64,000 nt of DNA from a bacterium (GCA_046757025.1 JBHHXN010000004.1:1-64000); one strand, 5' to 3'. Positions 21,354 to 50,590 are shown, numbered from the stretch's first letter. Notes: generated by a model not told the origin, from the sequence alone. A program made the numbers and translations.

Positions 21354-21522
21354 GGGGCTCTGTCCAAAAAGTCGTGTTTCTTCACCTTGAGTCCTTCGAC
21401 GCGCTCAGGATAGACTTCGTCGAAGGGTTTTGTAAGTTGATTAAAAACACACATGCTTTCCCGAATTTACTTCGGGACTCAGCATGAAGTTGTGTGTGTT
21501 TTGGGACTTTTCGGACTGCCCC
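21354..21522. mobile_element. MITE/REP-like element (inverted copy of the 29894 element)
   Basis: gtccaaaaagtc...gacttttcggac ends; interior tccttcga..gctcaggatagac..cgtcgaaggg and gaatttacttcg..tcag.atgaag match the reverse complement of 29894-30050. Confidence 0.6.
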
Positions 21523-21716
21523 CGGTCCCAAACGAACGTGATATCTGTCATTCCCGAGCAAACGGGAATCAATAACTTGTTGATTTTTCTGGATCCTGCT
21601 GCCGCAGAAATGACCTTCGTTGCTAAATTGAAGCTTTTTGGAATCCCCGAAAAGTGAACAATGTGAAAAAAAATGAAAACACCTGCGCACCGAATCCAGA
21701 TGAGGAGAAATTCAAA

Positions 21717-25870: not shown

Positions 25871-27214
25871 ATGCCTAAAAAAAAGGGGAAATCTAAAAAG
25901 AAAAAAAACAGCTCCGCCGCGTTATCGCCCAAAACCTATCTCAAAACCCGGGCCCGTAATTTACCCATTTATGAGTGTTTTATCTCCGATAACTGGAAAA
26001 CGTTGCGTATTCCAGACATTGTTGTAGCCAGAAAGCACAAAAACGGTAATATCACCTGCGGCCTCTTCCTTGTGGACCTGTTTTGCCTGGGCGTTGTGGA
26101 CACGTTTTTTGGATTTAATATGACCGAGGCGGAATACCAGGATTTTCTGGATACTTACATTCAGTATTCAATTTTGGAAGAATGCGACTACGCTTTAGTG
26201 CATAACATCGTTTACGGCGCTTTGGACTTTGCGTGTAAATATGGATTTCAGCCTCACAGAGAATTCGCCACCACTCAATACCTCTTGGAAGAGGCGTCCG
26301 CAGAAATTGACCATATCGAAATCGAGTTTGGAGATGAAGGCATGCCGTGCGTGCTTACCGAATCCCTGGAAGAATCCAAGGACATTATCAAACAACTTGA
26401 TAAAACCGCCGGCCGGGGCAATTACAAAGTGGTTTATCTGGAAGCGAACGGATCTGACGATGAATATGCTGTTGCAGACGACTATTATTATGATGATGAC
26501 TTTGATGACACAATAGAAGACCGCCTGAACGCTATCGAAAAACTCGATCAGCTATATGAAGAGAAGTTTGGCAAAACGCATAGGCCAGAAATTAAACCTG
26601 AATTTCTTGAATACCGCGAATATAAGATCACATTCGAACCGCTGAAAAATCCGAATTACTTCAGTCCAGAAGAAGACCAGCTTAAAGCCGAAGAGCTTTA
26701 TAATCTGTCGCGTTCTGGAAGCGCCAGCAAAGCACGTAAAGCGATTCCGCAATTGCTCGCGTTGATGGAGCAATTCCCCAATAATCCCATCTATTACAAT
26801 TATTTGGCAATTGCTTATTCAACTGCAGGTGAAAAAAAAGCCGCCACGGAAGTTTGTAAAAACTGTTATAAAAAATTTCCTGAATATCTGTTCGCTAAAT
26901 GTAATTATGCCCAGTACTTGCTCGATGAACAGAAATTCGAAGAATTATCGGCCGTTTTTGACAACAAGTTTGATCTGCAAATGATTTATCCGGATCGAGA
27001 CGAGTTTCACATCAGCGAGGTGCTGACTTTTTTTGCGACCATGTGCCGATATTTCATTGCCATCGATGATTTGGCCACGGCGGATGTTTACGGAAATTTG
27101 TTAAAAGAATTTAAAGACATGGATAACCCCTTGAAAAATCGGGCCCTGTTCGAATTAACCGCTAAGAAGTATGAAAAGGTTTTCGGTATGCCTCTTTTTA
27201 ATAAGGAAGCGTGA
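25871..27214 (+). CDS. Hypothetical protein with acidic linker and C-terminal TPR-like repeats
   Basis: 447 aa; GGGAGG RBS; FLVDLFCLGV N-terminal domain; helical repeat PIYYNYLAIAY...FPEYLFAKCNYA. Confidence 0.7.
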   Translation: MPKKKGKSKKKKNSSAALSPKTYLKTRARNLPIYECFISDNWKTLRIPDIVVARKHKNGNITCGLFLVDLFCLGVVDTFFGFNMTEAEYQDFLDTYIQYSILEECDYALVHNIVYGALDFACKYGFQPHREFATTQYLLEEASAEIDHIEIEFGDEGMPCVLTESLEESKDIIKQLDKTAGRGNYKVVYLEANGSDDEYAVADDYYYDDDFDDTIEDRLNAIEKLDQLYEEKFGKTHRPEIKPEFLEYREYKITFEPLKNPNYFSPEEDQLKAEELYNLSRSGSASKARKAIPQLLALMEQFPNNPIYYNYLAIAYSTAGEKKAATEVCKNCYKKFPEYLFAKCNYAQYLLDEQKFEELSAVFDNKFDLQMIYPDRDEFHISEVLTFFATMCRYFIAIDDLATADVYGNLLKEFKDMDNPLKNRALFELTAKKYEKVFGMPLFNKEA

Positions 27215-27328
27215 ATTGGTTCGACACGCCGGTAGTCAGGAAGTTGACTTGGGTGAAGTTAAGGCCTCACCGTTTTTCTTCAGAAGATTAATCTTCAACA
27301 CAGTCATTGTTTATGAATAGAAAGCTAA

Positions 27329-28696
27329 ATGTTTGCCAGCGCTAAAATTGACGCCGCAACGGTAATAAATTCTTCCGGGCAATCAGACGCTGTGGTCTCT
27401 GAAACTTTCGATATCAAGTTAAGCCGCCCGCAGCAGCAAAAATCAAGCTCAAAAAAATACCGTAAACCGCGGGTTCTATTTCTGATGCCAACCCGAACTT
27501 ACCGCGCAAACATGTTTTTAGAAGCCGCCGAACGCCTGGATGTGGATGCGGTGATCGGCACAGACCAGCCGCAGACACTGCCGTCCTTCACCGCTGGCAA
27601 AATCCTCACCCTCAACTTCAACAATGAGGAGCGGGCGAAACAAGCCATCGTCGAGTTTGCGGCCGCGCATCCCCTGGCCGCGATCATCGCCACGGATGAC
27701 GACACGGTGGTGGTGGCCGCGCTGGCATGCGAAGCGCTTTCCCTGCCATCTAACCCGCCCGATGCAGTGCGGGCCACTCGTCAAAAGCACTTAATGCGGG
27801 AAATCCTGCAAAAGGCCGGTCAGCCTACCCCGAATTTCACCGTGTGCACCACCGATAAAGATCCGGAAGCTCTCTCCCGGTCGGTACGCTATCCTTGTGT
27901 CATCAAACCAGTATTTTTATCCGCCAGTCAGGGTGTCATTCGGGTAAATAATCCGCCGAAGCTGCAGCAAGCGTTTGCCCGAATCGTCGATCTCCTCAAA
28001 AACAGCGAGCTGAGAGAACGCGGCGGCCCGGCCGCCGATCTCATTCTGATTGAGGACTATATCCCCGGACGGGAATTCGCTCTGGAAGGTTTGTATTCCA
28101 ACGGCATACTAAAGGTGCTGGCCCTCTTCGATAAACCCGATCTGCTGGAAGGACCCTATTTCGCCGAAACCATCTACGTCACTCCTTCGCGCCTGTCGGA
28201 AGATCAACAGGCCCAAATTGTGCAATGTGTGGACGGCGCGGCCAAAGCGCTTGGGCTGACTCACGGACCTATTCACGCGGAAATTCGTCTTCACGATGCG
28301 CAGCTCTTTATTCTGGAGATTGCAGCGCGTTCCATCGGCGGTCTCTGCTCTCGCAGCCTGCGATTCGAAAAAAACATGTCGTTGGAAGAGCTGCTTTTAC
28401 GACATGCCCTGGGTTCGCACATCGCCGCAGTTGAGAGAGAAAGCCAGGCCGCCGGTGTCATGATGATCCCGGTACCCCAGGAAGGCATTCTAACAGAGAT
28501 TCGCGGTCTGGAATGGGCCAAAGGAGTGGCAAACGTAGAAGAAATCAAAATCACCATACCCGTGGGACAAAAGTTGATCCCGCTGCCCGAAGGCAATCAG
28601 TATCTCGGGTTCATTTTTGCCCGGCACCCCAACCCGCAAAACGTCGAAATAGCTTTGCGAGAAGCTTTTGGTTGTTTGGAATTTGTGATTGATTGA
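27329..28696 (+). CDS. ATP-grasp domain ligase
   Basis: YPCVIKP..SASQGV, IEDYIPGREF, FDKPD, IHAEIR, LEIAARSIGG; the true start may be later. Confidence 0.85.
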   Translation: MFASAKIDAATVINSSGQSDAVVSETFDIKLSRPQQQKSSSKKYRKPRVLFLMPTRTYRANMFLEAAERLDVDAVIGTDQPQTLPSFTAGKILTLNFNNEERAKQAIVEFAAAHPLAAIIATDDDTVVVAALACEALSLPSNPPDAVRATRQKHLMREILQKAGQPTPNFTVCTTDKDPEALSRSVRYPCVIKPVFLSASQGVIRVNNPPKLQQAFARIVDLLKNSELRERGGPAADLILIEDYIPGREFALEGLYSNGILKVLALFDKPDLLEGPYFAETIYVTPSRLSEDQQAQIVQCVDGAAKALGLTHGPIHAEIRLHDAQLFILEIAARSIGGLCSRSLRFEKNMSLEELLLRHALGSHIAAVERESQAAGVMMIPVPQEGILTEIRGLEWAKGVANVEEIKITIPVGQKLIPLPEGNQYLGFIFARHPNPQNVEIALREAFGCLEFVID

Positions 28697-28926
28697 TGAA
28701 TCTCGCAAGTTTGGGGGCCATGGAAAGGTATGATGGCTTTCTTTCTTACTTGCATTATTCACGAGAGACGGTTTATCTGGATTGTCCAAAAGCTTTTTGG
28801 GGCGTCATTCCCGCGAAAACGGGAATCCATAACGCAATGGAGTTTATTGGAAAGCCGCTAAAAGCATACAGGCATGACACAGGAAAAATCAATGTTTTTA
28901 GACATCCCTGGAACGCCTCCGCCAGA

Positions 28927-28973
28927 AAACCCGGTTTTGCCTTTTCGTGCCTAAGGCGGGCACCCGGGGTTTT
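28927..28973. terminator. Putative bidirectional terminator hairpin between the convergent ATP-grasp gene and nfuA
   Basis: aaaacccgg...gcct...aggc...ccggggtttt imperfect inverted repeat with A/T flanks. Confidence 0.4.
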
Positions 28974-29109
28974 GGTGTACAACGCCTTCGGCGTAATAGA
29001 CTAGCGTCATCAAAGACTTTTGCTGGACGTTACCTACTCAAATCAACATACCACCTCTATAAATCATTTTTTGACAGCCTTTATTGACCGCCTTCAAGGC
29101 AACCGATGG

Positions 29110-29697
29110 CTACTTCGAAGGCTGATAATACGGATTTTTGCCGTCCGCGTGATCGGTGACATCCATCACTTCTTTGATTTCGGGGATGGCTTCTTTGATC
29201 ATCACTTCCACGCCCTGCTTCAGGGTCACGTTGACCATGCCGCAGCCCTGGCAGCCTCCGCCAAATCTCAGGTAAGCGATATGGTCTTTCACATCCACCA
29301 GCGAAATAAAGCCGCCGTGGGAAGCGATGGCCGGATTGATGCGCGAAGCGATCACCTGCTGCACTTTATCGGCCAGCGGGCCGGATGGCACCGGCGGTCC
29401 CATGGCTTTCGGATTGGTGATTTTAAAGCCGGTTTCATTGAGACCCTGCACAAAGTCCACATTGGCGCCCTCCACCAGCGGCGCGCTCTGCGGATCCACG
29501 TAAAATTTGATACCGGAAAATTCCGTAACCTTATCGGCTTCATGCGTCTGCCCTGGCTCCACGAACGCCAGTCCGTAATCCACAGAAAACGGCGAAGCTC
29601 CGCGTTGGGCCGTAATCCGGATGCCCTGGCCTTTATGGTCTTCCTCCTCTAAAATCGATTGAAATTTTTTTAACGCATTATCACTGAGGTTGAACAT
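29110..29697 (-). CDS. nfuA: Fe/S biogenesis protein NfuA
   Basis: Degenerate A-type domain plus NifU-C (INPAIASHGG...GGGCQGC...DVTDH...NPYY); AGGAG RBS before ATG 29697. Confidence 0.88.
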   Translation of the reverse strand: MFNLSDNALKKFQSILEEEDHKGQGIRITAQRGASPFSVDYGLAFVEPGQTHEADKVTEFSGIKFYVDPQSAPLVEGANVDFVQGLNETGFKITNPKAMGPPVPSGPLADKVQQVIASRINPAIASHGGFISLVDVKDHIAYLRFGGGCQGCGMVNVTLKQGVEVMIKEAIPEIKEVMDVTDHADGKNPYYQPSK

Positions 29698-29893
29698 CGA
29701 GCTCTCCTGCTTTAAATTTGTCAGATCGGCTAAAGTTGTCGTGACTGGTCTTTTTATTTTTAAATCCCGTTTAATTTTCAATTTTTCAAAATAATCGTTT
29801 GTGATTAAAAATGCAAGTTAAATTAAACTGAGCTGCAAAACAAATGCAAAATTCATCTTCTATTTAAAGTCATTCCATCAATTAACCCCTGAT

Positions 29894-30050
29894 TAGTGTT
29901 TGACCGAAAATGAGCGTCTTCATACTGAATCGCGAAGTAAATTCAAGAGAACATGACGTAAAAACAAAAGCTAATCCCCCTTCGACGCCGTCTATCCTGA
30001 GCTTATCGAAGGATTCAGGTTGAAGAAATATGGACTTTTCGGTCAGACAC
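29894..30050. mobile_element. MITE-like element
   Basis: TAGTGTTTGACCGAAAA...TTTTCGGTCAGACAC; interior is nearly collinear with 39053-39200. Confidence 0.65.
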
Positions 30051-30068
30051 GAATTTATCATTTTCAAA

Positions 30069-31496
30069 TCACATGGAACCAAACTGATCCCGGTTGGGCT
30101 CCGCTCAGCAGAACCAATCTTCTGTCAGGCGCGGTGTAAACATTCGCTGTTGAGCCAAATGAGTCGGACGAATTTGCCGTTTCCTGCCAGCCAGCTCGAA
30201 TACACCATTTCTTATTTCAAAGTAAGTATCTATTAAATCCTGATGGCGGCCGGCGGCTTTTTCCACCATTTCTGCGATGGCAATTTGAAGTTCATCCATG
30301 TCCGAATGGGGATGCCGCCAGGCGTACAGCCATTTTTCCTTATCCAACCCAAGAACAAACGGTTTGATGTCCCCTAAATTCAAAATGCTCGAGCCCGGCG
30401 GAATGAGCAATCGAATGCTGTACTGGATGGGGTCGATTTGATCATAGAGATGAAATTCTTCCACCAGATTGAAAATGTCCAGCAAATCGGAGATTTTCGT
30501 CCAGGGGGTGAAGGGCATCAACGAGGGACGCAGGGGAATACCCGCTGCGTGCGTCAGGTGCAAAGCTTCCTGCACATCCGATTTCGTGTGGTTTTTTGCC
30601 AGAAATTTCAAAATCGCATCGTTCAAAAGCTCCACTGCCGACACGATGAACACACAGCCAGTTGCTTTAAATTCCGGCAAAAGATGCTGGTATTCCAGCA
30701 GGTGTTCTATCTTGGCTGTGAAATCAAATGTCAGCTCAGGAAATCGCTGGTGAAACTCGCGGACGATGTCCAGCGAATGTTTGACGCCGTTTAAAAAATC
30801 GGGATCCCCGAACGTGATGTGTTCGGCTCCCAGCTCTACGAGCTGTTCTACATCCGCCAGTACGATTTCTTTCGGGATGATCCGCATGCGTCCGGCATAA
30901 ACCGGGGTAATGGGACAGTGCCGGCAGCGATGCGCACAACCCCTGCTGGCCAGAGTGTATCCGGTGAGTCGCAGCTCCTCACCCATTTTTAATCGGGTAT
31001 AGCGGTCGAGCGGCGGCATCAAGCTGCGCTCGGGCACGATGAATTTTTGCCTTGAAACAGACGTTATGGATTGCGGCAAACTTGAGCGGTTTTCGAAACG
31101 GGGGTCATTGAGGTTATTTACGACGGCCCGGGCAATCTGTACCAGAGTCTGCTCAAATTCTCCGCCGGCGATTGAATCGGCCAAGCCCGTGTTTCCGTTT
31201 TGAGCCAGCAAAAATTCCGAGTGCATGCCGGCGTAGAGTCCAAAAAAACAGATGTGACAGCCGGGATTCAATTTGCGGACGCGTTTGGCGACCTTTTCGG
31301 ACAAACGCAGGGCGGTGTGCATGGGAGTGGACAGCGCAACCAGTTGGGCCTCTTTTATCAAATCTTCAGCAAACGGCTCAACCGACAAATCCAAACAGTT
31401 AACTTGAAAACCAGCAGCCAGCAAATGGGCCGTGGGCGAAGCTAAATTAAACGGCTGGTGTCCCAGCTCGTAAAGGGAAATTAAAACGATGTTCAT
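30069..31496 (-). CDS. CUAEP-tail radical SAM selenoprotein (in-frame UGA at 30105-30107 read as Sec)
   Basis: CAHRCRHC motif, B12-binding-like N-terminus; reading through TGA gives PRLTEDWFC-U-AEPNRDQFGSM*. Confidence 0.85.
30075..30102 (-). promoter_or_regulatory. Candidate bacterial SECIS hairpin
   Basis: mRNA GGAGCC-C-AAC-C-G-(GGAU)-C-A-GUU-U-GGUUCC, immediately 3' of the UGA. Confidence 0.55.
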
Positions 31497-31504
31497 ACCG
31501 CTGC

Positions 31505-32512
31505 TTATCCGCCGATCTGATACATTTCGATCTTTTGGTGGGCGCCGATATCGGTATGAGAAGTTCTTTCCTCGGAATAACGATCCGTTCGTTTTTGCCA
31601 GATGCTTTTGATTTTTTGCAGCAGTTTTTCATCGGAAATACCCGAGCGCAGGGTTTTCTTCAAATCCACACCCTGACAGGCAAACAGGCAGGTGTACATT
31701 TTACCCTCGGCAGAAAGCCGGACGCGGGTGCAGCCGCTGCAAAATGGCTGCGTTACCGACGCGACCACGCCAATTTCGCCCCTGCCATCGAGGTAGCGGT
31801 AGCGATTGGCTACTTCGCTGTGAAAGTTTTTTTTCACCGGCGCGAGCGGTATCTCTGCATGAATGATCGCCACGATTTCTTTTGCTGAAATCACGTCATC
31901 CATTTTCCAACCGTTCAAATTTCCCACATCCATAAATTCGATAAAACGTATGATGAACCCGTTGTCCCGGGCAAACCTGGCGAGGTCGAGAATCTCACCA
32001 TCGTTGACGCCTTTTTGAATCACCGCGTTGATTTTAACGGGCGCTAATCCTGCTTTGACCGCGGCTTCGATACCATCCAGCACGTTTCGCAGATCCAGAT
32101 GATTACCGGCTAATTCTTTCAGCAAAGCGGGTTTCAGGGTATCCAGACTCACCGTGACTCTTTTCAAGCCGGCTTGTTTTAATCCCTGTGCTTTCTGTTT
32201 CAAGAGATAACCGTTACTGGTGAGCGCCAAATCTTTCAGCCCGTGGATATTGGCCAGCTTTTCAATGAGTACTTCCAGTTCGTGTCGCAGCAGAGGCTCG
32301 CCGCCAGTCAGCCGGATTTTAGCGACGCCGCATTGCACATACGCCTTTGCAAGGCGATGAATTTCTTCAAAGGAGAGAATTTCATTCCTGGCTAAAAAAA
32401 CATAATTATGGCCGAAAATATCCGCCGGCATGCAGTAATTACAACGAAAATTGCAGCGGTCGGTTACGGAGATGCGTAAATCCTGCAGCGGTCGGGAGAG
32501 TCTATCTAACAT
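31505..32512 (-). CDS. moaA: GTP 3',8-cyclase MoaA
   Basis: LRISVTDRCNFRCNYCM, RLTGGEP, FCSGCTRVRL...TCLF, C-terminal IGG. Confidence 0.95.
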   Translation of the reverse strand: MLDRLSRPLQDLRISVTDRCNFRCNYCMPADIFGHNYVFLARNEILSFEEIHRLAKAYVQCGVAKIRLTGGEPLLRHELEVLIEKLANIHGLKDLALTSNGYLLKQKAQGLKQAGLKRVTVSLDTLKPALLKELAGNHLDLRNVLDGIEAAVKAGLAPVKINAVIQKGVNDGEILDLARFARDNGFIIRFIEFMDVGNLNGWKMDDVISAKEIVAIIHAEIPLAPVKKNFHSEVANRYRYLDGRGEIGVVASVTQPFCSGCTRVRLSAEGKMYTCLFACQGVDLKKTLRSGISDEKLLQKIKSIWQKRTDRYSEERTSHTDIGAHQKIEMYQIGG

Positions 32513-32861
32513 TTACACACTTTTTTAAAAAGTTAAAACAACCCGTGCTAATTTCTTCGGTTATCCCCCACCGCTCCCTGCTTACGACAATCAGGGAGAA
32601 ATTCATTGTGAATTTCGTGCTGAAAATTCAATCGGCTGTCCGCTCAATGAATGCGGACATGACCATCCTATCTAAAAATTACCGTAGTCTCGAAAAACGA
32701 TAATTTTTCTTGACCAGGCCAAACTCAGCACCGCGCGGCTGAAAATGTTGTTTTGAAAACCGTTTAAATCACCCTATCCGCGCTAAATTACGATAAATTT
32801 ACGCCAATGTCAACATTTGATACGGGCTGCCCCAAACGGTAAATCCGATTAAATTTCACGA

Positions 32862-33578
32862 TCACGGGTTGGAAGGCCGAATATCGATTTCGCTCACCAT
32901 GGCGCGCTGCGGCAGTTTGACGGCTTCCACGATGGTTTGCGCCACGTCTTCTGGCTTCAAAATACGTTCGCGTTTTGGTTTTGCGGTGATGGATTCGTGA
33001 TTGAAAAACGGCGTATCCACCGAGCCCGGGCATATAGCCAGAACACGTACGCCAGCCTGGCGTTCCTCCAGCATCAAACATTTTGAGAAAGCCAGCACCC
33101 CCCATTTGGTGGCGGCATACCCCGAGCCCCCAGCAAAGGCATTTTTACCAGCCAGGGACGCCACATTGACGATGAAACTTTCTTCCTTCTTTTTCAAATA
33201 CGGTAACGCCTCGCGTGTGCAGAGAAACAGACCGCGCAAATTGACCTCAAACATTTCATCCCAATCCATGGTGGAGAATTCCACAATGCGCCCGAAACGT
33301 CCGGTGCCGGCGTTATTCACCAGAATGTCGATGCCGCCAAATTTGCCCGCGGCTTCGGTGATTAAATTTTTGATTTCACTTTCCCGGGTGACGTCCGTTT
33401 GCACGATGAGCGCTTTTCTACCCAGATTCCCGATTTCTTTTGCCAATGTTTGTAAATCGGTGACGGTGCGGGAGGCAATCACCACATTGGCGCCAGCCCG
33501 GGCCAATGCCAGCGCCGTGGCCCGCCCGATGCCTTTGCCGGCGCCGGTCACCACAGCAATTTTGTTCTTTATGTCCAT
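32862..33578 (-). CDS. SDR family oxidoreductase
   Basis: TGAGKGIG, NNAG, YAATK. Confidence 0.9.
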   Translation of the reverse strand: MDIKNKIAVVTGAGKGIGRATALALARAGANVVIASRTVTDLQTLAKEIGNLGRKALIVQTDVTRESEIKNLITEAAGKFGGIDILVNNAGTGRFGRIVEFSTMDWDEMFEVNLRGLFLCTREALPYLKKKEESFIVNVASLAGKNAFAGGSGYAATKWGVLAFSKCLMLEERQAGVRVLAICPGSVDTPFFNHESITAKPKRERILKPEDVAQTIVEAVKLPQRAMVSEIDIRPSNP

Positions 33579-35359: not shown

Positions 35360-35968
35360 TTATTTTTCCTCTAACTTTTTCACCAATTTGTTATACATTT
35401 CCTCATAGGAATTTTTGGCGATCTGTTTGTAAAAAGACTCGCGATAATTGCGCGCGGTGCTCACGCCGTCGATTTCTATGTCATAAACCAGCCATTGCCC
35501 GTCCACTTTGTGCATTTTGTAAACGATTTCCACTTCCTTCCTTTTTTTAAAAGCGATGGTGGTCACCTTGGCTTTTGAACCGTTGATCTCCGCTTCTTCA
35601 TACACCATTTTATCGGCTTTATAAATTTCTAATTTTTTCACAGAAGAATTTTTGATGAGTTGTGAAAAAGTTTTCACGAAGTCGTCTTGTTCCTTCGGGG
35701 TTCGCTGTTTCCAGTATTTGCCCAAAGACAATCTCGACAGCTCGCGAAAGTCCATGACGCCATTTATGACCTCTTTCAATTTTTCCCGAATTTCAGTGGT
35801 GATGTTATCATCCGCTTCATCGAGTATATTTTCGATGGCTTGATTGCGGGCTTTTACGATTTCCACCGGCGACACATCCGGTCGAGCAAAATTAGCGTTA
35901 CTGAAAAGGGTCAGGGCTCCCAATAACAAAATCGTTGGAATTATCCATCTATTTTTTTTCATGGTCAT
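35360..35968 (-). CDS. MlaC/Ttg2D-family periplasmic lipid-binding protein
   Basis: Signal peptide; MDFRELSRLSLGKYW, WLVYDIEIDGVS..RNYRESF. Confidence 0.85.
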   Translation of the reverse strand: MTMKKNRWIIPTILLLGALTLFSNANFARPDVSPVEIVKARNQAIENILDEADDNITTEIREKLKEVINGVMDFRELSRLSLGKYWKQRTPKEQDDFVKTFSQLIKNSSVKKLEIYKADKMVYEEAEINGSKAKVTTIAFKKRKEVEIVYKMHKVDGQWLVYDIEIDGVSTARNYRESFYKQIAKNSYEEMYNKLVKKLEEK

Positions 35969-36000
35969 TTCCTCTTTTTCTAAAATCTATCTATTACATT

Positions 36001-37374
36001 CTATTTCGCATACAAATCTCGGCCTGTAGCTTTACTTAATTTCGCCATTGCTATATTATACGTAAAAATGTTCTGTAAATGTTCCGCTTGCATGGCGCCA
36101 TTGGCTTTAAAAGCGTCGATCAGCTCTTTGACTTCGCCCACGCCGATATCAAAAGTCATGGTAGCAGAGCGCAGCCAATTGTCGCTGGCTTTGAGTGCCC
36201 GACGGCTGGCCCGCATGTTGCGTTCGGCCTGCTGCAATTCTAAATACGACTTCTCCACTTCCAATTTCAGACCGTCTATCAGCAGCTTTTCTTTTTGTGC
36301 CAGTTGTCGAAACTCCATCTGCGCCACACGCACCTTATCCCGCGTTTGCAAAAAATTCAGATTCAAATTCATCCCCAGAGCGACGCCCGGACGAAAATAA
36401 TTGGTGGGGTTGTAAATGAACGGTCCTTTCGGATCAAAGCGATCCTGTGCATAATTATATTTAATCTGTCCACCAAAAAAGAATTGCGGAAAATAATCGC
36501 TTTTGCTCACCGTAATCATGGCTCTTCGCGCGTTGATGCCCGCCCGCAGTTGCGACAGCTCCGCCCGATTTTGCAGCGCCATTTCGTAATAAACCGAGAG
36601 GCTGTCCAAATGAAAATCCAATGGATCCAGATATTCGGTAGCCGGCTCGATTTCCACGTCGTCTGCCAGTCCCAGCGTCACTTTCAGCACCGATTTCGTC
36701 AGCTTGATCTTATCCACGGTTTGCCTTTTTCTTTTGTCCACTTCGTAGCGGAAAATTTTCAGTTTAAACAGATCGGTTTGCGATATTTCATCGGAGCCCT
36801 CATCCAGCTTTTCCTGAATTTTGTCTTCCGCCTTTTTCAGCTCGTTGTCGGCATTTTCAACCACGCTTAAAAGCTCCTTTCCCAGCACCAGCGCCCAGTA
36901 GAGCTGACGCACTTGCAATCGCACGCTTTCGCGCTCTTTTTCGATTTTCGCTTGGTCTGCCTTCACCCCATAAGACGCAGCTTTTGCAATCCCGCTCAGT
37001 TTACCAAAGGTGTAAATCGGCTGAATCAAATCTAAATCTACCTGAGTGAAAAGTCTGAGATCGCCAGGAATACTGGTAATTGAATCCGGAGAAATGACAA
37101 AGCTGCCGGTTGGATCCATTTTACCGCGTGCTCTGGGAAGCGTTCCCCAGATATTTTTCACTTCAAATTTTGGGAGAAATTTAGCATGAGACGCCTGAGT
37201 TAATTTCGCCTCAGAGGTTTTTAAACTGAGCCGGGCATCTTGAATGGTCAAATTATTTTCAAAGGCTAATTTTTCGCAATCAGGCAGGCTTAATACTAAC
37301 TTTTTATTTTCTTGACTAACGGCATAGGTCGTGCAGATTAGAAAAATGTAGAGAACAAAATTTTGTTTTACCAT
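36001..37374 (-). CDS. TolC-family outer membrane protein
   Basis: Two OEP-like repeats (FLPKF/YFPQF, QPIYTFGK), C-terminal LSKATG. Confidence 0.85.
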   Translation of the reverse strand: MVKQNFVLYIFLICTTYAVSQENKKLVLSLPDCEKLAFENNLTIQDARLSLKTSEAKLTQASHAKFLPKFEVKNIWGTLPRARGKMDPTGSFVISPDSITSIPGDLRLFTQVDLDLIQPIYTFGKLSGIAKAASYGVKADQAKIEKERESVRLQVRQLYWALVLGKELLSVVENADNELKKAEDKIQEKLDEGSDEISQTDLFKLKIFRYEVDKRKRQTVDKIKLTKSVLKVTLGLADDVEIEPATEYLDPLDFHLDSLSVYYEMALQNRAELSQLRAGINARRAMITVSKSDYFPQFFFGGQIKYNYAQDRFDPKGPFIYNPTNYFRPGVALGMNLNLNFLQTRDKVRVAQMEFRQLAQKEKLLIDGLKLEVEKSYLELQQAERNMRASRRALKASDNWLRSATMTFDIGVGEVKELIDAFKANGAMQAEHLQNIFTYNIAMAKLSKATGRDLYAK

Positions 37375-37400
37375 CCACCCTCTTCATTGTATTTAAATGG

Positions 37401-38666
37401 TTATTCGGCTTTTAATTTCTCTTTGACACCGGAATCGGCGTCCGCCTCTTTAAGCGCCCGGATATCATCGTAATCGGCGTAAGCTTTTGAGTTCGTCGAA
37501 TTGGCGTCAGACAGGATGCCGATACCAACAGGCCGGGCGGGCGGTTTACCGCCGAAAGTTTTTTTATAGGCTTCATAAGCGTTGAATGTATAGGTTCGCC
37601 ATTCTCCCAGATGTTCTTCGCCGCTATCCGCCACGATGTTCCAGGGCTTGCCAATACCGCTGCGCTGCATGGCGGCTCCCACCGGCAGCGTGGTGCTCCA
37701 AACATATTTCACCGACTCCGGAATCAAACCCAATTTCTTTTTGTAGATGATGTAGATGCCAGCCGCGCTGTCCACCGAGCGACTGTAGCGCTCATCCCCG
37801 CCGGCTGGCACATGATGCACCCTCCAACGAAATGAAATGTAAGGATATTTCTTCAAATTCCACACGATGTCTTTCCCCAAAATCACCGATTCTCCGTTGT
37901 CTTCGGCTGCTAAAAATTTGTTACCCTTTTCTTCTACGATTTTGTATGGTTTATTTTTTTTATTATCCGATTTCTTCCACAGCCAGCCTCTTGGCAGCTT
38001 GCCGACTTCACTCGATTCAAAATCCTCTAAGATGACATAGTCGGAACGGGTCATCTCAGCTATCAAGTAAGCCAGCGAGTATTTTTTAATGATCTTGCTG
38101 CAAAAACTGTAGTAATCGCGCAGTAAACTTCTTTTTCCGGCTTTCAAGTTAGATATACGCCAGCTACCGTCTGGATATTTCAACATGTAAAGCGTGATTT
38201 CTTTTTTCTCTTTTACGCCTTCCAGTGAATAATTTAGTGTCGCAACGTTGTCATTGGTTTTGCTCGACGTTAATTTTATCCCTGGCAAATTTCCATTGCT
38301 TTTATCATTAAGATAGGTCAGAATCTTTTGCCGTAAAGAGATCTTGATTGCTTCCATGAACGCCTTTTTTTGGTGATCGCTGGTACCCTTCCACTTTTTT
38401 TGCAACATCTGTGGAGCCAGCCTTTCTACAGCGAACAATTCATCCACCAACTGGTAGAGCTGCTGCTCTCGCGAATCCGGATCGTTTTTAGCGCCATTTT
38501 TAAATTGATCGTGGATTTGTTTGTAAAATCGATCGATGGTTTGCTTGGGCGTCAGGCTGTCGTTTTCCCCCATCCCAAAATATGATGTGCCAGCACCAAC
38601 GACGGAAAACGACAAAATCAAGGAAACAAGCACAAAACGGGGCTTTAGATTTTTGTATTTAAACAT
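37401..38666 (-). CDS. Fusion of an MlaC-like domain and a DUF3047-like domain
   Basis: N-half resembles MlaC (QMLQKKW...WRISNL...SLLRDY); C-half YPYISFRWRV..GGDER..DSAA..IKY/VKYVWS..SDANST. Start chosen at ATG 38666. Confidence 0.7.
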   Translation of the reverse strand: MFKYKNLKPRFVLVSLILSFSVVGAGTSYFGMGENDSLTPKQTIDRFYKQIHDQFKNGAKNDPDSREQQLYQLVDELFAVERLAPQMLQKKWKGTSDHQKKAFMEAIKISLRQKILTYLNDKSNGNLPGIKLTSSKTNDNVATLNYSLEGVKEKKEITLYMLKYPDGSWRISNLKAGKRSLLRDYYSFCSKIIKKYSLAYLIAEMTRSDYVILEDFESSEVGKLPRGWLWKKSDNKKNKPYKIVEEKGNKFLAAEDNGESVILGKDIVWNLKKYPYISFRWRVHHVPAGGDERYSRSVDSAAGIYIIYKKKLGLIPESVKYVWSTTLPVGAAMQRSGIGKPWNIVADSGEEHLGEWRTYTFNAYEAYKKTFGGKPPARPVGIGILSDANSTNSKAYADYDDIRALKEADADSGVKEKLKAE

Positions 38667-39052
38667 AAATGATAGTCGCTGAATAAAATGATAAATTTGC
38701 AATCGCTTGGTTATTCTTTTAATAATCAACACTTTTGAGGATAGTATTGTTCCAGCAATCAATTTAATTTAGTTTAATCAAAATACAAATCAATACTTAT
38801 TTCGTTGAACAAAATAATCCATTCAACGCGATTTTGAGACAAAGGTTGCAAATTTGCTCATACCTGTGAAGCGTTAACCGGTATTATGAAAAACGGCTAT
38901 CCAGTTATATTATTCACCAAATTGCAATTTTTTTTTGAATATGTCAGAATTTTTTTCTCCCCAAAACAAGCGATTGGTTTTCAACTTTTGGCCATTGGTA
39001 TTTAATTTTTTAGTACTTACGTTGGGATTATCAATTCACCCTGTCGCTTAGT

Positions 39053-39200
39053 TAGTGATTGACCGAAAACGAACATCTTCATGCTGAGCGGAGTCAAAGC
39101 ATGACTAAAAAACAACAGCTTATCACCCTTCGACGCAGTTTATCCTGAGCTTGTCGAAGGGCTCTGGGTGAAGAAATATGGACTTTTCGGTCAATCACTA
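39053..39200. mobile_element. MITE-like element with perfect 17-bp terminal inverted repeats
   Basis: TAGTGATTGACCGAAAA ... TTTTCGGTCAATCACTA enclosing REP-like hairpins. Confidence 0.7.
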
Positions 39201-39301
39201 GTTACAATAACCATTTTAACTGATTGTGTTTTATTAGCTAACAACCAACGGCTAATTGCGAATCGCGCAATTTAGGTTCTCTTTTAATTGCTGATGATGC
39301 T

Positions 39302-41719
39302 CTAAGCAGTTTGCAGTTCCTTCACGGGCTGCTTTTTCGAGGTTTTCTTCTCTAAAAATTGCAGCAAAGCTGGCAAAACCAACATGGCCGTGACAAACGC
39401 AGCACTGATACCGATGATGGCCAGATCGCCGATGGAATTCAAGCCTGGATGTCGCGCCAGAATTAATCCAGAATAGCCCACGATGGTGGTTAAGGTGGTC
39501 ATAGCAATGGCCATTCCGGTGTTTCTTAAGACGTGGTAAAGAGAGCCGGGGCCTTCTTCCAGATAGCGGTGGTACAAATGCACGCCGTTGTCCACTCCGA
39601 TGCCGATGATACTGGGAAGCACCACAATGTTAAAGAAATTGAGTTTCATCCCGGTGAGATACATGACCACGCCCATCCACACTACACCGACTACCAAAGG
39701 AGTTAGCACAAACAAGGTGGCTTTGAAGCTATTGAAATCGATGAACACGATTATAAACACCACAAAAAAAGTCAGAATCACTGCCAACCTCCCCTCGCGA
39801 ATTAAGATCGTCAGCATCTCAGCCAGAATAATGTTTGAGCTGGAAGCATAATACGTTTTGCCGGACGCGGTAGTCATCTTGCCGATATCCCGGCGAAATT
39901 CAATGGCGTTACGGCCGTCTTTCAAGGCGACGCTGGGATAGATGAAAACAAAATTACCCACCTCGCCTTTTTTGTTGATGAATTGTCTTTTGTCTTTTTC
40001 AGGAAAATCCTCCCAGGTGAACGGCGCTTCCACCTGTAAGTAGCCGTACAATTTGTCCAGTCTTTCTTTATCTTCGCCCTTCACCACGTCTTCGGCTTCC
40101 TCGTCGATGAGCTGTCTTATTTGCTTGATTTTCGCGATTTTCTCAAACTGATCATCCGGCACCAGCGAAAACGCCGAGCGCACAGTTTTAACCGTTGGCG
40201 AAGTGGTGTCGCTTTTGATGATCGCTTTCACGGCTGTCACAATTTCTTCGGTCTCCGCTTTGGTGTCGGCCATTACCAGCGCCGGCGATTCGGACAGTTT
40301 GAACGCCCCCTCGGATTTTTTGCCGATCAACTCCCGCTCTTTGATATTGGCCCGCAGATTGGTAAAATCGTATTCAAAACTTACCTGACTGAAACTGTAA
40401 ACAGCAAACAGCGTGATCAGACCCGAGATCAGCAAGATCGGTTTAGCATATTTGAATTCCCTGCGCTGAAAGCTCATGCTCTTAGCCGGCACCGGCTTGA
40501 TTTTCAGCAAATGCCACTTTTCAAACAAGGTGATCATAGCGGGCAGCACCACCACCATGGCCACCAGCGCAAATAACATTCCCACGCCGGCGATGAAACC
40601 CAGATCGGAGAAGCCTTTGAAATCCATCAGCGTGAGCGACAAAAACGCCGCCGAAGTCGTGACCGCAGTGGTGGCCAGGGCCTTACCCGTTTGGTTGACC
40701 AGTTTCTCGATGGCGGCTTCAAAGCTCAAGCCGCTTCTTCGACTCTCCGAATATCGGGCGAAAGCGTGAATGCCGTAGTCGATTCCCAGTCCAAATAAAA
40801 TCACAAACAAAAAGCCGGTGATGGTATTTAAATTCCCAATGACCCAGTAGGTCAAACCAAACGTCCAGGTCAGCGACATCAGCAGGGTTAAGGTAATCAT
40901 GAATGCACCGGCAAAGCGACGAAAATAGAGAATGATCAACAAAAACACGCCGCCAAAGCCGTAATAAGCCGTACCGAGGATGTCCCTTTTCACCACCGCG
41001 TATTCATCTAATTTGGTTTTGAAATTGCCGCCGTAATAAATCGCCATTTCGGGATCGTACTTTTGTGGCTCTGCGGCTTCGACAATGGCCGTGACTTCGT
41101 CGTAAAAATCCTGTACAAAAGCCAGGTCGGTGTTGGTGCTGGTGGGCATCACTTTCATGATCAGCACAGTGCTGTCTTTGTTGATGTAATATTCATTGGG
41201 TTCTTTGTACTGGTATTCTTCTTCCCAGCTCGCCCAGCTCTCGTCTTCCGTTGATTCCTCATCGTCTGCAAAAAGGTCATCCACAAACAGAGGATTGAGC
41301 TTTTGTTTCTCCGCATCGATTTTATCCTGAATGCCCTCGTAAAGCGCGTCGATCTCCTCCAGGTCCATCAGCAGCAAACCGTATTTTTTGTAAAAAGCCA
41401 CGTCGTTTTTGTAATCCACATAATTGACAATGGGACTGGCAAGCAGTTTATTTTCCAGAGCGGCCGCAAACGCTTTGGCAGAATCGAGGTGGCTGGTTTC
41501 CAGGATTATTTTTAAATTGCCCACGCCGCCCACTTCTTCCTTGATGGCGTTCAGGGCTTTTACGCTTTCGAAATTATTGGGCAACAATTCAGCCAAATCA
41601 GTCTGCAAAGTCAACTTGGAAGAATAGTAGCCGCCAACAATACTGAGCAAAAGCGCTACGAGTAAAATGGGTACATAATACTTATAAACCACATAATATT
41701 TCTCAGAAAATCTGAACAT
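39302..41719 (-). CDS. MMPL/RND-family lipid exporter (HpnN-like)
   Basis: Two repeats with GLGIDYGIH and GIGVDNGVH; about 12 TM; 805 aa. Confidence 0.88.
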   Translation of the reverse strand: MFRFSEKYYVVYKYYVPILLVALLLSIVGGYYSSKLTLQTDLAELLPNNFESVKALNAIKEEVGGVGNLKIILETSHLDSAKAFAAALENKLLASPIVNYVDYKNDVAFYKKYGLLLMDLEEIDALYEGIQDKIDAEKQKLNPLFVDDLFADDEESTEDESWASWEEEYQYKEPNEYYINKDSTVLIMKVMPTSTNTDLAFVQDFYDEVTAIVEAAEPQKYDPEMAIYYGGNFKTKLDEYAVVKRDILGTAYYGFGGVFLLIILYFRRFAGAFMITLTLLMSLTWTFGLTYWVIGNLNTITGFLFVILFGLGIDYGIHAFARYSESRRSGLSFEAAIEKLVNQTGKALATTAVTTSAAFLSLTLMDFKGFSDLGFIAGVGMLFALVAMVVVLPAMITLFEKWHLLKIKPVPAKSMSFQRREFKYAKPILLISGLITLFAVYSFSQVSFEYDFTNLRANIKERELIGKKSEGAFKLSESPALVMADTKAETEEIVTAVKAIIKSDTTSPTVKTVRSAFSLVPDDQFEKIAKIKQIRQLIDEEAEDVVKGEDKERLDKLYGYLQVEAPFTWEDFPEKDKRQFINKKGEVGNFVFIYPSVALKDGRNAIEFRRDIGKMTTASGKTYYASSSNIILAEMLTILIREGRLAVILTFFVVFIIVFIDFNSFKATLFVLTPLVVGVVWMGVVMYLTGMKLNFFNIVVLPSIIGIGVDNGVHLYHRYLEEGPGSLYHVLRNTGMAIAMTTLTTIVGYSGLILARHPGLNSIGDLAIIGISAAFVTAMLVLPALLQFLEKKTSKKQPVKELQTA

Positions 41720-43955: not shown

Positions 43956-45731
43956 TCAACTAAAATGTTTTTCCACCCACCAGCTAAAAATTAAAATTGA
44001 CCAGAGCTTTAGTCCCACATTTTTGCCCTTTAAATGCGACTGCATCAAAGCAGAAATAAAATCAACATCTACCCATTGGGTGATTTTTGAATTCTCCAGG
44101 ACGGTATCTTCAAAAACGGCATGCAACGGCCCTTTGAGCCATTCTCCGACAGGCACGGTAAATCCATGTTTCGGCCGGCGGATAATTTCTATGGGAATAT
44201 GTGGTTTGGCCACTTCCTTTAAAAGCCGTTTTTTCTCTTTTAATCCAGTTTTAAAATTTCCGGACAAGGTCAAAACGTATTCAGCAACCTTTTGATCCAG
44301 GTAGGGTACGCGCGTTTCCAGGGAAGCCAGCATGCCCATTTTGTCCACCTTCATGAGCAAATCATCCACCAACCAATTGCGTAGATCGGTATAGAGCATG
44401 CTGTTTAGATGCCCGGCATCCTGGAAAAACGCTTGATCAGTACGCATTTTTTGTTCTGCGTCCATTTGGTCATCTTGAATAAAGCATCCCGGTAAAAGCC
44501 TTTTGCGCTCTGGTTCATGGAACAGACACGGACCCGGCAGGTTTATTTTGGTAAACATCCCGCTCAGGAACGTTCTACTCAAGAGATCTTTCAGCGCGTA
44601 TAAATGGTACCGTTTGTAACCACCAAAAAGTTCATCCGCACCCTCACCTGAAAGCACGACTTTTACTTTTTCAGCCGCAAATCGACTCATCAAATAGGTT
44701 GGTAAAATGGCGTAATCGGCTATCGGTTCATCCAACTGTTCGATGATGAATGGCAAGTGCTTCAGCGCTTCGGTGCCGGTTACGTTTATTTCATGATGAT
44801 GGGTTTGGTATTTTTCAGCTAAAATACGTGCGTAATCAATTTCATTAAATTTAGAGCCCTGGCCAAATCCCACAGAAAAAGTGTTCAACGGTTCCTGGCT
44901 ATTTTGCGCCGCGAAGGCCAACAGGCAGGAAGAATCCACCCCGCCGCTTAAAAACACGCCCACCGGTACATCGCTCACCAGGTGGCCCTTCACGGCCTCG
45001 TTGAAGAGACCATCCAGTTGGATTGCAGCCTGAGACATGGTGACGCCATTTTGCAACGCCGGTGCTGGCTGCCAATATCGGTACTCGCTTTTCGACTCCC
45101 GAACAATCTCCATCACGGAGGCCGGGGGAAGTTTCTCTATTCCGTTGAAAATGGTGCAATTGCCGCCGACGTATTGCCGAGTAAAATAAAAATTCACCGC
45201 GGCTGGATTCAACTCATTTAATTGTGGCAGGACACTGCGAATGGCTTTGATCTCGGAAGCAAAATATATTTTGCCTTCGAAATCGCAATGATAAAGCGGC
45301 TTGATGCCGATGCGGTCACGGGTTAAAATCAGTTTCCGTTTTGTGCGATCCCACAGAGCAAAAGCGAACATACCCGAAATGTAATCCAGAAACGACATGC
45401 CGTATTTTTCATACAGGGCCAGAATGACTTCGGTATCGCTTCTGGTTTTAAACGGATACCCTTCAGCTACAAGATTTTGTCGCAGCTGAGGAAAATTGTA
45501 AATTTCACCGTTGTAAGTGATGATGGACTGTCCGGTCGGAGAGGTCATGGGCTGTTGCCCGCTATCGATGTCGATGATGCTGAGCCGGCGATGCCCAAAA
45601 GCCACCGCATCTTCTTGAAAAAAACCACTGCCATCCGGACCGCGATGCGCCAGCACTTCGGTCATCTGTTCGATTTCTCGCTTTGCAGGCGGCGCCGAGT
45701 TGTAAGCGTAAATTCCAGCGATTCCACACAT
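43956..45731 (-). CDS. asnB: Asparagine synthase (glutamine-hydrolysing) family amidotransferase
   Basis: MCGIAG, HRGPD, HRRLSIID, LSGGVDSS, SGEGADELFGGY, KVDKMGM. Confidence 0.92.
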   Translation of the reverse strand: MCGIAGIYAYNSAPPAKREIEQMTEVLAHRGPDGSGFFQEDAVAFGHRRLSIIDIDSGQQPMTSPTGQSIITYNGEIYNFPQLRQNLVAEGYPFKTRSDTEVILALYEKYGMSFLDYISGMFAFALWDRTKRKLILTRDRIGIKPLYHCDFEGKIYFASEIKAIRSVLPQLNELNPAAVNFYFTRQYVGGNCTIFNGIEKLPPASVMEIVRESKSEYRYWQPAPALQNGVTMSQAAIQLDGLFNEAVKGHLVSDVPVGVFLSGGVDSSCLLAFAAQNSQEPLNTFSVGFGQGSKFNEIDYARILAEKYQTHHHEINVTGTEALKHLPFIIEQLDEPIADYAILPTYLMSRFAAEKVKVVLSGEGADELFGGYKRYHLYALKDLLSRTFLSGMFTKINLPGPCLFHEPERKRLLPGCFIQDDQMDAEQKMRTDQAFFQDAGHLNSMLYTDLRNWLVDDLLMKVDKMGMLASLETRVPYLDQKVAEYVLTLSGNFKTGLKEKKRLLKEVAKPHIPIEIIRRPKHGFTVPVGEWLKGPLHAVFEDTVLENSKITQWVDVDFISALMQSHLKGKNVGLKLWSILIFSWWVEKHFS

Positions 45732-45732
45732 T

Positions 45733-46965
45733 TTAATTTCGATATTTTTTCATTATTTGATAAAGCGCCGACACATTTTTTTTGACATCGAATTTTTCGC
45801 ACGCCGTGTTCCGGGCCGCCGTTCGCATGGCGGATAAATCCTTTGCTTCCAAAAAAGCCATCATAGCTTTGCTTAGAGCCTGCGAATCGCCTGCAGGAAT
45901 GAGCATCCCGTTTACGCCGTTTGTAATCGCCTCCGGAATGCCGGAAATATTTGTACCGATGATGGGCAGGCCGTGTGCCAGAGCTTCCAGACAAACATTG
46001 GGCAGGCCATCGCGATCGCCGTGCTCATCGATAATGGAGGGCATGACCAAAGCGTGGCAAGAGTCATAAATTTGGCTCATAGTATGTGGTGGCACGTAAC
46101 CAGGCAGGTCCACAGTGTCATGCAAACACCGTGCGCGAATTTGCTCTCTAAATGATTCCTCCAACGGGCCCTCGCCCACGATTTTGCACTTGAATCGATA
46201 GCCCGCCTCCTTTAAGCTCTGGCACGCTTCCAATAAATATTCGTAGCCTTTCTTAGGCACAAATCGACCCACGGCCAAAAAGGTAAAGGAATTGATTGGT
46301 TTTGCTTTCTGTTCGTGCTCTTTAGACAAAGCCAATCCGTGATGAATGGCAAACAATTTCGAGTTGACCCCCTTATCTACATTTTGCAAAAACTCTGCAT
46401 TAAAATTTGTGCAAGTCACCACGTAATTGGCTTTTTGAATTTTAGTCAGCATTCCACTGTTATCTTTGTAGATATCCATGGCGTGAGCGGTGCAGCCAAA
46501 AGGAATTTTTGTTAAAATAGAAAGATACAACGCTGTTTCAGTAGGCGCCGTTAAAAAATGGGCATGTATCAAATCAACCTGCTGTATTTTGATTTTTTCT
46601 GCAATCGCCGCTGCGCGAAACAGACAAACCAAACTTCGGCCGAGCTTTGGACGACGGTGTCCGAAAGTAATAAATTGTTGCCACGCCTGAATGTAAACGA
46701 CTGGATTTTTAACTTTGAAAATGGCATGTCGGAACAAACACCCGGGCGTAAACGGATTTTCGGGAATTTGGATAAAACGCGTCTTTAATGATTTTTCATC
46801 GTCGGTTAAATCTTCGCGTTCGATCACGGTGCGGGCGCCTACGAGCAATTCCACTCCCTGACTTTTCAGCTCCACCATTTCTCGCGTGATAAAATTCTGT
46901 GACCACTCAAACAGGCGATTTACAATGACGAAAACTCGCAAATTATCTGGCGCTGACTTTTTCAT
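45733..46965 (-). CDS. Glycosyltransferase family 4 (WcaL-like)
   Basis: IHAHF, TAHAMDIY, VGRFVPKKG, DGLPNVCLEA. Confidence 0.88.
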   Translation of the reverse strand: MKKSAPDNLRVFVIVNRLFEWSQNFITREMVELKSQGVELLVGARTVIEREDLTDDEKSLKTRFIQIPENPFTPGCLFRHAIFKVKNPVVYIQAWQQFITFGHRRPKLGRSLVCLFRAAAIAEKIKIQQVDLIHAHFLTAPTETALYLSILTKIPFGCTAHAMDIYKDNSGMLTKIQKANYVVTCTNFNAEFLQNVDKGVNSKLFAIHHGLALSKEHEQKAKPINSFTFLAVGRFVPKKGYEYLLEACQSLKEAGYRFKCKIVGEGPLEESFREQIRARCLHDTVDLPGYVPPHTMSQIYDSCHALVMPSIIDEHGDRDGLPNVCLEALAHGLPIIGTNISGIPEAITNGVNGMLIPAGDSQALSKAMMAFLEAKDLSAMRTAARNTACEKFDVKKNVSALYQIMKKYRN

Positions 46966-48169: not shown

Positions 48170-48268
48170 CTTTGTTGATAAATAATGCTTATGACCCCAA
48201 TGAACGAACGTAAAAAAATATAGATAAACCTGCCCTCAGATGCAACTGCTTTTTGTTGGACTGTTAAT

Positions 48269-48322
48269 GAGTGTTTGAACGAAAACTCGAGAAATGCGCG
48301 ATTGAAAACCTCTACGCGAAGG
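48269..48322. repeat. Partial copy of the MITE left end
   Basis: gtgtttgaacgaaaactcgagaaat...aaacctctacgcgaagg, near-identical to 14842-14894. Confidence 0.6.
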
Positions 48323-50582: not shown

Positions 50583-50590
50583 GAATTTCT

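Follow-up and report, generated by a model that had tools for sequence, protein, structure and literature searches.

A selenocysteine-containing radical S-adenosylmethionine (SAM) enzyme, an Nfu-type iron-sulfur (Fe-S) protein and an ATP-grasp ligase are encoded next to each other in a bacterial DNA stretch of 64,000 nucleotides (GCA_046757025.1, JBHHXN010000004.1:1-64000), here called the window. The linkage of these three genes is well supported by their occurrence in other bacteria, and very probably genuine. Together they point to a small-molecule pathway that has not yet been described. In the explanation developed below, which we hold at about even odds, the window genes are the local form of a multi-phylum module, (YggX)-radical SAM-(Nfu)-(DUF169)-ATP-grasp, in which the radical SAM enzyme would transfer a 3-amino-3-carboxypropyl (ACP) unit in the manner of the enzyme ArsL, with ligation as the following step.

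Evidence for the linkage comes from gene neighbourhoods. A profile made from an alignment of 24 family members was scanned against 185,579 species genomes, and confirmed relatives of the radical SAM protein were found in at least 588 species-level genomes. From these, the 80 best loci (numbered with the prefix L) were kept, each with flanks of no more than 10 kb. Neighbours were counted either by searching the six-frame open reading frames (ORFs) with the window proteins or by all-against-all clustering. An orthologue of the ATP-grasp ligase is present in 35 of the 80 loci; 34 of these match at 243-447 bits, and one is a fragment at a contig end. Its median distance from the radical SAM gene is 530 bp, with 33 of the 35 within 2 kb and 24 on the same strand. 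The unbiased all-against-all clustering gives the same picture, with the ligase in 34/80 loci. An earlier reading of the window, made from its sequence alone and called here the sequence-only reading, had proposed that the ligase and the radical SAM enzyme form a two-enzyme pathway, and had chosen co-localisation in other genomes as its own test. The two genes do lie together elsewhere, in 34-35 of the 80 loci and in at least seven named phyla.

The linkage is found in Acidobacteriota (10 of 13 loci), Nitrospirota (6/14), Methylomirabilota (3/4), Rokuibacteriota (3/5), Gemmatimonadota (3/10), Chloroflexota (3/13) and Planctomycetota (2/9). Adjacency of the ligase is scattered on the tree of the radical SAM proteins, with 22 state changes, and it is found with both the selenocysteine form of the enzyme (22 of 56 loci) and the cysteine form (9 of 16). 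The order of the genes differs between lineages. It is radical SAM-Nfu-ATP-grasp in Rokuibacteriota and Methylomirabilota, radical SAM-DUF169-ATP-grasp in Nitrospirota, and ATP-grasp-radical SAM-Nfu in Blastocatellia, and the ligase is convergent in KSB1 and Longimicrobiia. On the tree, the window protein groups with those of L001, L002 (a metagenome-assembled genome of KSB1) and four Gemmatimonadota loci, forming a clade of seven members.

Further partners recur around the radical SAM gene. Nfu-domain genes are found in 37/80 loci, at a median of 9 bp downstream, with 42 of 46 such ORFs on the same strand; this position fits a role in Fe-S supply. A gene for a YggX-type Fe(2+)-trafficking protein lies directly upstream in 15/80 loci, and a DUF169 gene lies downstream on the same strand in 16/80. 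DUF169 is mentioned in passing in two places, both weak leads: in a table of a selenium comparative-genomics study (PMC5322559) and in the figure legend for an hgcA neighbourhood of Nitrospina (10.1101/648329). The commonest unrelated family, ABC ATPases, occurs in 13/80 loci at a median distance of 4118 bp. In the 46 loci whose flanks both reach 3 kb or more, the ligase and Nfu are each found within 3 kb in 23, and ABC ATPases in 4; 39 of these 46 have one or more of the partners ATP-grasp, Nfu, DUF169 and YggX somewhere in the locus.

Other genes of the window do not follow the radical SAM gene in this way. Searching the 80 loci with the window proteins gave 28 NfuA-like matches, 6 (paralogous) SDR matches, 3 MoaA matches and 1 RNase HII match, and none for the window's TPR protein, FolE, MnmL, MBL hydrolase, YraN or ORF113. 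When 150 ORFs flanking the module were compared with Pfam, ATG22/MFS transporters were found in about 9 loci and formyltransferases in Chloroflexota, together with SufBD, an IscA-like gene, a rhodanese and a MoeA_N protein. Families for arsenic resistance or methylation were absent from these 150 ORFs and from the recurrent neighbours of the 80 loci.

In the window, the arrangement described by the sequence-only reading is borne out. The gene moaA, encoding GTP 3',8-cyclase (31505-32512, minus strand; 391 bits on TIGR02666, whose cut-off is 284, PF06463 Mob_synth_C 131 bits), ends 8 bp (31497-31504) before the radical SAM gene (30069-31496, minus strand). Next comes a repeat resembling a miniature inverted-repeat transposable element (MITE; 29892-30054, 163 bp), lying between the radical SAM stop codon and the nfuA-type gene (29110-29700, minus strand). 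The ATP-grasp gene (27329-28696, plus strand) converges on nfuA across a spacer of 413 bp (28697-29109). This spacer holds no recognisable gene: its ORF at 28693-29004 has no match in NCBIfam or Pfam, and the sole repeat found in it is a 30-nt match to 21547-21576. A promoter and terminator scan of 27000-33000 gave nothing that exceeds shuffled expectation.

The radical SAM gene contains an in-frame UGA. Under translation table 11 its ORF (30105-31496) stops at this TGA (30105-30107) after ...TEDWFC. If the codon is read as selenocysteine, translation continues with CUAEPNRDQFGSM up to a second TGA at 30071-30069, and the protein has 475 residues with selenocysteine at position 464. The read-through protein matches NF040546, the "CUAEP/CCAEP-tail radical SAM (seleno)protein" family, with 615 bits, where 500 is the cut-off; the match spans residues 3-473 and model positions 1-467 of 468. 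The radical SAM motif CxxxCxxC (C187, C191, C194; PF04055 43.9 bits) is invariant in 24 sequences. Outside this motif there are exactly three conserved Cys or Sec positions, namely the family-specific C281 and, in the tail, C463 and U464.

That the UGA is a selenocysteine codon is settled by comparison. A hairpin resembling a selenocysteine insertion sequence (SECIS), GGGAUC-aguuu-GGUUCC, starts 13 nt past the UGA (30075-30091, minus strand). The 60 nt from the UGA onward were compared in 54 distinct loci and the window, 55 sequences in all. In 54 of the 55, a 5-8 bp stem closed by an AGUU(N) loop lies at a constant distance from the UGA. The stems have 20 different 5' arms, each paired by its own 3' arm, and their mean length is 6.07 bp, compared with 3.61 bp when the arms are swapped between sequences. 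Because this covarying hairpin follows the UGA in nearly every case, the codon is read as selenocysteine. Folding of the single window sequence 3' of the UGA gave a different hairpin of ordinary energy (z = 0.18), a result superseded by the comparative analysis, and Rfam gave no match above gathering thresholds in the whole window, with only chance-level matches around the UGA. Across the 80 loci, the tail reads WFC-TGA-AEP in 56, has the cysteine form in 16 and is cut or unclear in 8.

No tRNA was found in the 64 kb of the window, nor a sel gene among the 59 ORFs scanned. The gene selD adjoins the ATP-grasp gene at three other loci, L007 (3884-4981; TIGR00476 357 bits), L016 (1957-2919; 329 bits) and L012 (752-1714). 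These three sit together in the Blastocatellia clade of the tree, and the radical SAM protein of L007 has the cysteine form. A cultured carrier of the selenocysteine form is Thermomicrobium roseum DSM 5159, whose megaplasmid NC_011961.1 encodes a CUAEP-type protein (L081:8935-10371) with WFC-TGA-AEP and the hairpin; its annotation ends at the UGA. Its neighbours there are a divergent pyridoxal-phosphate aminotransferase and a convergent MFS transporter. Haft's study calls the NF040546 family uncharacterised, lists it as one of few selenoproteins with a CU motif, and suggests that such motifs contact heavy-metal atoms (10.1101/2022.07.06.499078).

By sequence comparison, the CUAEP family is the sister, or nearest relative, of ArsL. 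The window protein matches the ArsL model NF040542 with 309.5 bits over residues 4-412. Searched against plasmids by tblastn, it finds 37 records, comprising the one CUAEP-type protein of T. roseum and 36 ArsL proteins with an RCCLKC tail, to which it is 29-37% identical. ArsL makes arsinothricin, an arsenic-containing broad-spectrum antibiotic, and is, to our knowledge, the sole radical SAM enzyme with the canonical motif that releases an aminocarboxypropyl radical. In two preprints, ArsL is described as cleaving SAM into methylthioadenosine and an ACP radical and as binding As(III) through three cysteines of its tail; without the tail, formation of the carbon-arsenic bond is lost and SAM cleavage is kept (10.1101/2024.02.01.577332, 10.64898/2026.04.29.721666).

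The ATP-grasp protein (longest ORF 455 residues) is predicted to be a ligase of the L-amino acid ligase (LAL) type. It has the Pfam domains ATP-grasp_4 (120.1 bits), LAL_C2 (49.1) and ATPgrasp_N (36.1), all over gathering scores. Its nearest solved structure is 3VOT (L-amino acid ligase BL00235), matched over residues 64-446 with 152 bits and E 2e-43, and the same search gives 66 bits to BacD. No NCBIfam model is matched at its cut-off, the best being PRK02186 with 141 bits against 625. In a tblastn search against plasmids only distant LALs were found, below 33% identity. The motif that the sequence-only reading had picked out in this protein is real: 25 sequences share, without exception, T55, Y58, F267-D268-K269-P270, G275-P276, F278, E280 and Y283. 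The start of the gene is uncertain, because the first ~47 residues are unconserved among 24 orthologues and the conserved part begins at about residue 48; the conserved block PRVLFLMPT requires a start upstream of 27470, either the ATG at 27329 or the GTG at 27392. The products of BL00235 listed in Table 2 of a review (PMC6920838) are Met-Gly and Met-Met. BL00235 therefore accepts a residue of the ACP type. A complex prediction for the radical SAM protein (with its ORF ended at the UGA) and the ligase gave a score of 0.00, which weighs neither way on binding.

Ligases of this general kind are also found beside ArsL. Six plasmid loci with RCCLKC-tail proteins were opened, and five have an "ATP-grasp domain-containing protein" within 4 kb. 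These five (L082-L085 and L087) belong to Bacillus cereus, Priestia, Alicyclobacillus, Pantoea and Klebsiella. The sixth, from Pseudomonas amygdali (L086), is the canonical arsQLM locus and is without one. Other proteins encoded in the ArsL-family loci are ArsM, an MFS transporter, a CobW-type GTPase, a CMD-family protein, ArsN and ArsR. The five ligases share 31-67% identity with one another. Four of them, all except that of Priestia, were scanned in Pfam; all four have ATP-grasp_4, and the two from Bacillales have LAL_C2. BL00235 is the nearest solved structure both of the window ligase and of this group (104 bits). The shared relationship therefore suggests that a ligase type suited to Met-like residues accompanies an ACP-transferring radical SAM enzyme in both sister families. 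The presence of an ATP-grasp gene in ArsL-family clusters suggests a peptide form of arsinothricin. In the literature searched, which excluded subscription-only texts and bioRxiv supplements, no paper ties the CUAEP family or arsinothricin clusters to an ATP-grasp ligase, and the word "ligase" is absent from PMC8552651.

The sequence-only reading had suggested, as an example, radical transfer of a SAM fragment to a heteroatom and then amino-acid ligation. The kinship with ArsL, the alignment of the Cys-Sec pair with the arsenic-binding Cys-Cys of ArsL and the LAL-type genes at ArsL-family loci lend this idea indirect support. The proposed pathway would run as follows. The single [4Fe-4S] cluster bound by CxxxCxxC would cleave SAM at the C-gamma-S bond, as in ArsL. 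The resulting ACP radical would be joined to a soft atom held by Cys463-Sec464, probably with Cys281, giving a non-proteinogenic amino acid that resembles methionine or glutamate. With ATP, the LAL-type ligase would then join this product to a second amino acid or another amine. NfuA in the window, and YggX or SufBD in other lineages, would load or repair the oxygen-labile cluster, and export of the product may fall to the MFS/ATG22-type transporters that some lineages encode beside the module. Candidates for the acceptor atom are Se, S, Sb and As, although arsenic genes do not accompany the CUAEP family. The ACP-radical chemistry, the action of the ligase on the radical SAM product, the sequence of events and the nature of the acceptor are all inferred, the chemistry by homology. 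A more specific version is tentative, and we think it less likely than its negation by a clear distance: the CUAEP enzyme would be a second, far commoner noncanonical radical SAM enzyme forming carbon-heteroatom bonds, its selenocysteine tail would present an atom other than arsenic (Se, Sb, or S from a cluster supplied by Nfu), and the ligase would make a dipeptide.

Several observations weigh against this pathway. The radical SAM protein does not reach the ArsL cut-off of 450 bits, and the third tail cysteine of ArsL corresponds to P467. The ATP-grasp proteins linked to ArsL are only distantly related to the window enzyme (22% identity; 63-120 bits to its profile), so that the parallel between the two families may be convergent. 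The ligase is not nearby in 23 of the 46 loci with long flanks, and in T. roseum it is absent within 9 kb of the radical SAM gene. A Rosetta-stone search gave six long relatives, four of which (P0242, P0243, P0244 and P0246; 833-908 residues) hold Radical_SAM and ATP-grasp/LAL domains, in both orders; these four may be run-through gene calls, and they are counted as adjacency only, because their linkers resemble out-of-frame translation of high-GC DNA. Finally, the Fe-S theme of the neighbours (Nfu, YggX, SufBD and an IscA-like protein) could exceed the maintenance of one cluster. Of the long relatives, P0241 and P0242 belong to a related subgroup of radical SAM proteins, and P0241 ends in ...EPWYC.

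The main rival explanation is unlikely and yet stands ahead of the others. It holds that Cys281, Cys463 and Sec464 bind an auxiliary Fe-S cluster, that the radical is accepted by the sulfide of this cluster, as in LipA and BioB, and that Nfu, YggX and SufBD rebuild the cluster after each sacrifice. The product would be a thiol amino acid like homocysteine, which the ligase would turn into a low-molecular-weight thiol or a metal-binding amide. Supply or protection of Fe-S clusters is indeed the steady theme among the neighbours, with Nfu directly downstream and YggX directly upstream at the frequencies given above. SufB/D-type genes lie beside the radical SAM gene in L032 (8510-9973) and near it in L050 (4580-6037 and 6418-8508) and L025 (186-1538), the last with an IscA-like gene (3616-3999). 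Also in favour, NfuA restores the sacrificed cluster of LipA, and there are exactly three conserved Cys/Sec positions outside the radical SAM motif, one of them (C281) not in ArsL. Nfu and YggX are, however, equally explained by the protection of an oxygen-labile cluster in aerobes, and making homocysteine from SAM would be circular. Selenocysteine is not known to us as a ligand in any natural Fe-S cluster, which also counts against a sacrificial cluster. For the homologous tail of ArsL, it is reported that the tail-less protein keeps its Fe and S content (10.1101/2024.02.01.577332); since the content is the same without the cysteine tail, that tail binds no cluster.

Protein modification is less likely again, and we consider it quite improbable. 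Some ATP-grasp enzymes modify the C-termini of proteins or peptides, for instance RimK and the graspetide ligases, and the ligase of the module might likewise act on the C-terminal tail of the radical SAM protein or on a ribosomal peptide instead of a free amino acid. The conserved acidic tail ...CUAEPxxxQ would offer such a substrate. The combination of ATPgrasp_N, ATP-grasp_4 and LAL_C2 and the full-length match to BL00235 indicate an L-amino acid ligase instead. Tight packing in several loci, with Nfu at +55 and the ligase at +359 after the radical SAM gene, leaves no space for a precursor gene there. The idea of a ribosomally synthesised and post-translationally modified peptide was set aside, as no recurrent extra ORF of at least 60 residues (the lower limit of the survey) was found near the radical SAM gene in the 80 loci.

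A role in molybdenum cofactor metabolism had been raised as a possible link by the sequence-only reading, and is not supported. In this explanation, the radical SAM enzyme and MoaA would work together in molybdenum or tungsten cofactor metabolism and the ligase would be incidental; we regard it as very improbable. In its favour are the 8-bp spacing of the two genes on one strand in the window, the presence there of msrP (6965-7996), which encodes a molybdenum enzyme, and a few other loci. MoaA is adjacent in L003, present as a fragment in L004 and within 3 kb in L032, and a MoeA_N protein is encoded upstream of a YggX-radical SAM pair in L062 (8177-9442). All three MoaA loci, however, fall in the seven-member clade of the window, a MoeA-like protein is found in 1/80, and, as neighbours of the radical SAM gene, the ligase and Nfu each outnumber MoaA more than tenfold. 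The genes moaD and moaE, which the sequence-only reading had placed in the window, were not found: none of the 59 window ORFs of at least 70 residues matched them in NCBIfam, or in Pfam for those negative in NCBIfam, and the two intergenic gaps whose ORFs were listed contain no candidate. The gene moaA is probably a lineage-specific neighbour and not part of the module.

That the genes have no functional link, and that unrelated housekeeping genes have merely kept an inherited order, is highly improbable as well, since absence of the ligase from half of the long-flank loci and the common gene order of related genomes are outweighed by adjacency in at least seven phyla, in upstream, downstream and convergent positions, whether or not Nfu or DUF169 separates the two genes, by the short median distance, and by the same kind of partner in the sister ArsL family.

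Several other features of the window may be described briefly. As the sequence-only reading had noted, apbC (9722-10867) is present along with msrP, both identified in a family scan. The MITE-like repeat is about 160 bp long, with TTAGTGnTTGACCGAAAA-type terminal inverted repeats of 19 nt that are 89% complementary and an internal palindrome. The label MITE is reasonable, because further copies exist in the 64 kb: a second full one at about 39052-39200, with 88% identity over 86 bp, and an incomplete one at 21377-21427. The bacillithiol genes bshB1 and bshC lie at 635-3018, adjoining a methyltransferase. Together with the nearest named homologues, the bacillithiol genes suggest that the bacterium is KSB1-like. 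A cluster of lipid-transport type (35360-41719) encodes an HpnN-like RND transporter, MlaC/HpnM-like proteins and a TolC-like outer membrane protein. Two more radical SAM genes (48430-49440 and 49554-50582) have weak MoaA-like matches of 75-80 bits, far under the cut-off, and both are within a cluster of glycosyltransferase, asparagine-synthase and CDP-inositol type (43956-52189). A YggX-type "oxidative damage protection" gene is found at 55775-56005, 25 kb from the radical SAM gene.

With the linkage in place, an orphan selenoprotein becomes part of a defined pathway of two to four genes, with a dedicated L-amino-acid ligase and Fe-S helpers. The CUAEP family is much more widespread than ArsL, and mostly contains selenocysteine. 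If the more specific version of the pathway is true, Acidobacteriota, Nitrospirota, Chloroflexota, Gemmatimonadota, Methylomirabilota, Planctomycetota and KSB1 would make organo-chalcogen or organo-metalloid amino-acid metabolites that form a class of their own, new to science, and dipeptides of the arsinothricin type would come from the ATP-grasp genes that many ArsL clusters hold. Two properties make the family approachable. T. roseum is a cultured host with a copy of the selenocysteine type, and natural homologues of the cysteine type exist, which should be easier to express.

Parts of the module can be compared with known systems. The CU dipeptide near a flexible C-terminus is shared with HgcA variants, the MerB-like protein SaoL and the tail of thioredoxin reductase, all of which are unlike the radical SAM enzyme in fold and catalytic domain. 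The Cys-Sec tail of thioredoxin reductase is a redox shuttle, and by analogy such a role is possible for Cys463-Sec464.

The nfuA-type gene resembles the NfuA that serves LipA and MiaB. Its product has an A-type N-terminal domain without cysteines (PF01521, residues 3-99), as in the degenerate A-type domain of NfuA, followed by an Nfu domain with the CxxC motif GGCQGC (PF01106, residues 113-178), and the gene directly adjoins a radical SAM gene. It differs in scoring beneath the NfuA equivalog cut-off (TIGR03341, 155.7 bits against 269.35), though the match is full length (residues 4-192 on positions 2-190 of 190). In other loci the partner is unlike NfuA, being a bare Nfu domain of 93-99 residues or an Nfu_N + NifU protein.

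The ligase shares the three-domain architecture of the L-amino acid ligases BL00235 (3VOT), BacD and RizA. It lies under the cut-offs of both the BacD model (68 bits against 850) and the DdaF model (43 against 840). Unlike the known enzymes, it belongs to a large orthologous family of its own, with invariant PTxTYR and FDKPDxxxGPxFxExxY.

The closest comparison is with ArsL. The radical SAM protein differs from it in having a ~45-residue insert ahead of the tail, an invariant C281 where ArsL has V or L, and selenocysteine in place of the second cysteine in 56/80 loci. Its genes also keep different company: no arsM, arsR, arsN or arsenic transporter is found near it in the window, among the recurrent neighbours of the 80 loci or in the 150 flanking ORFs, and Nfu, YggX and DUF169 are found instead. 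The two families are alike in their architecture over ~410 residues and in the position of CxxxCxxC. The Cys-Cys of the RCCLKC tail of ArsL aligns with C463-U464, and a gene for a LAL-type ATP-grasp ligase is a frequent neighbour in both.

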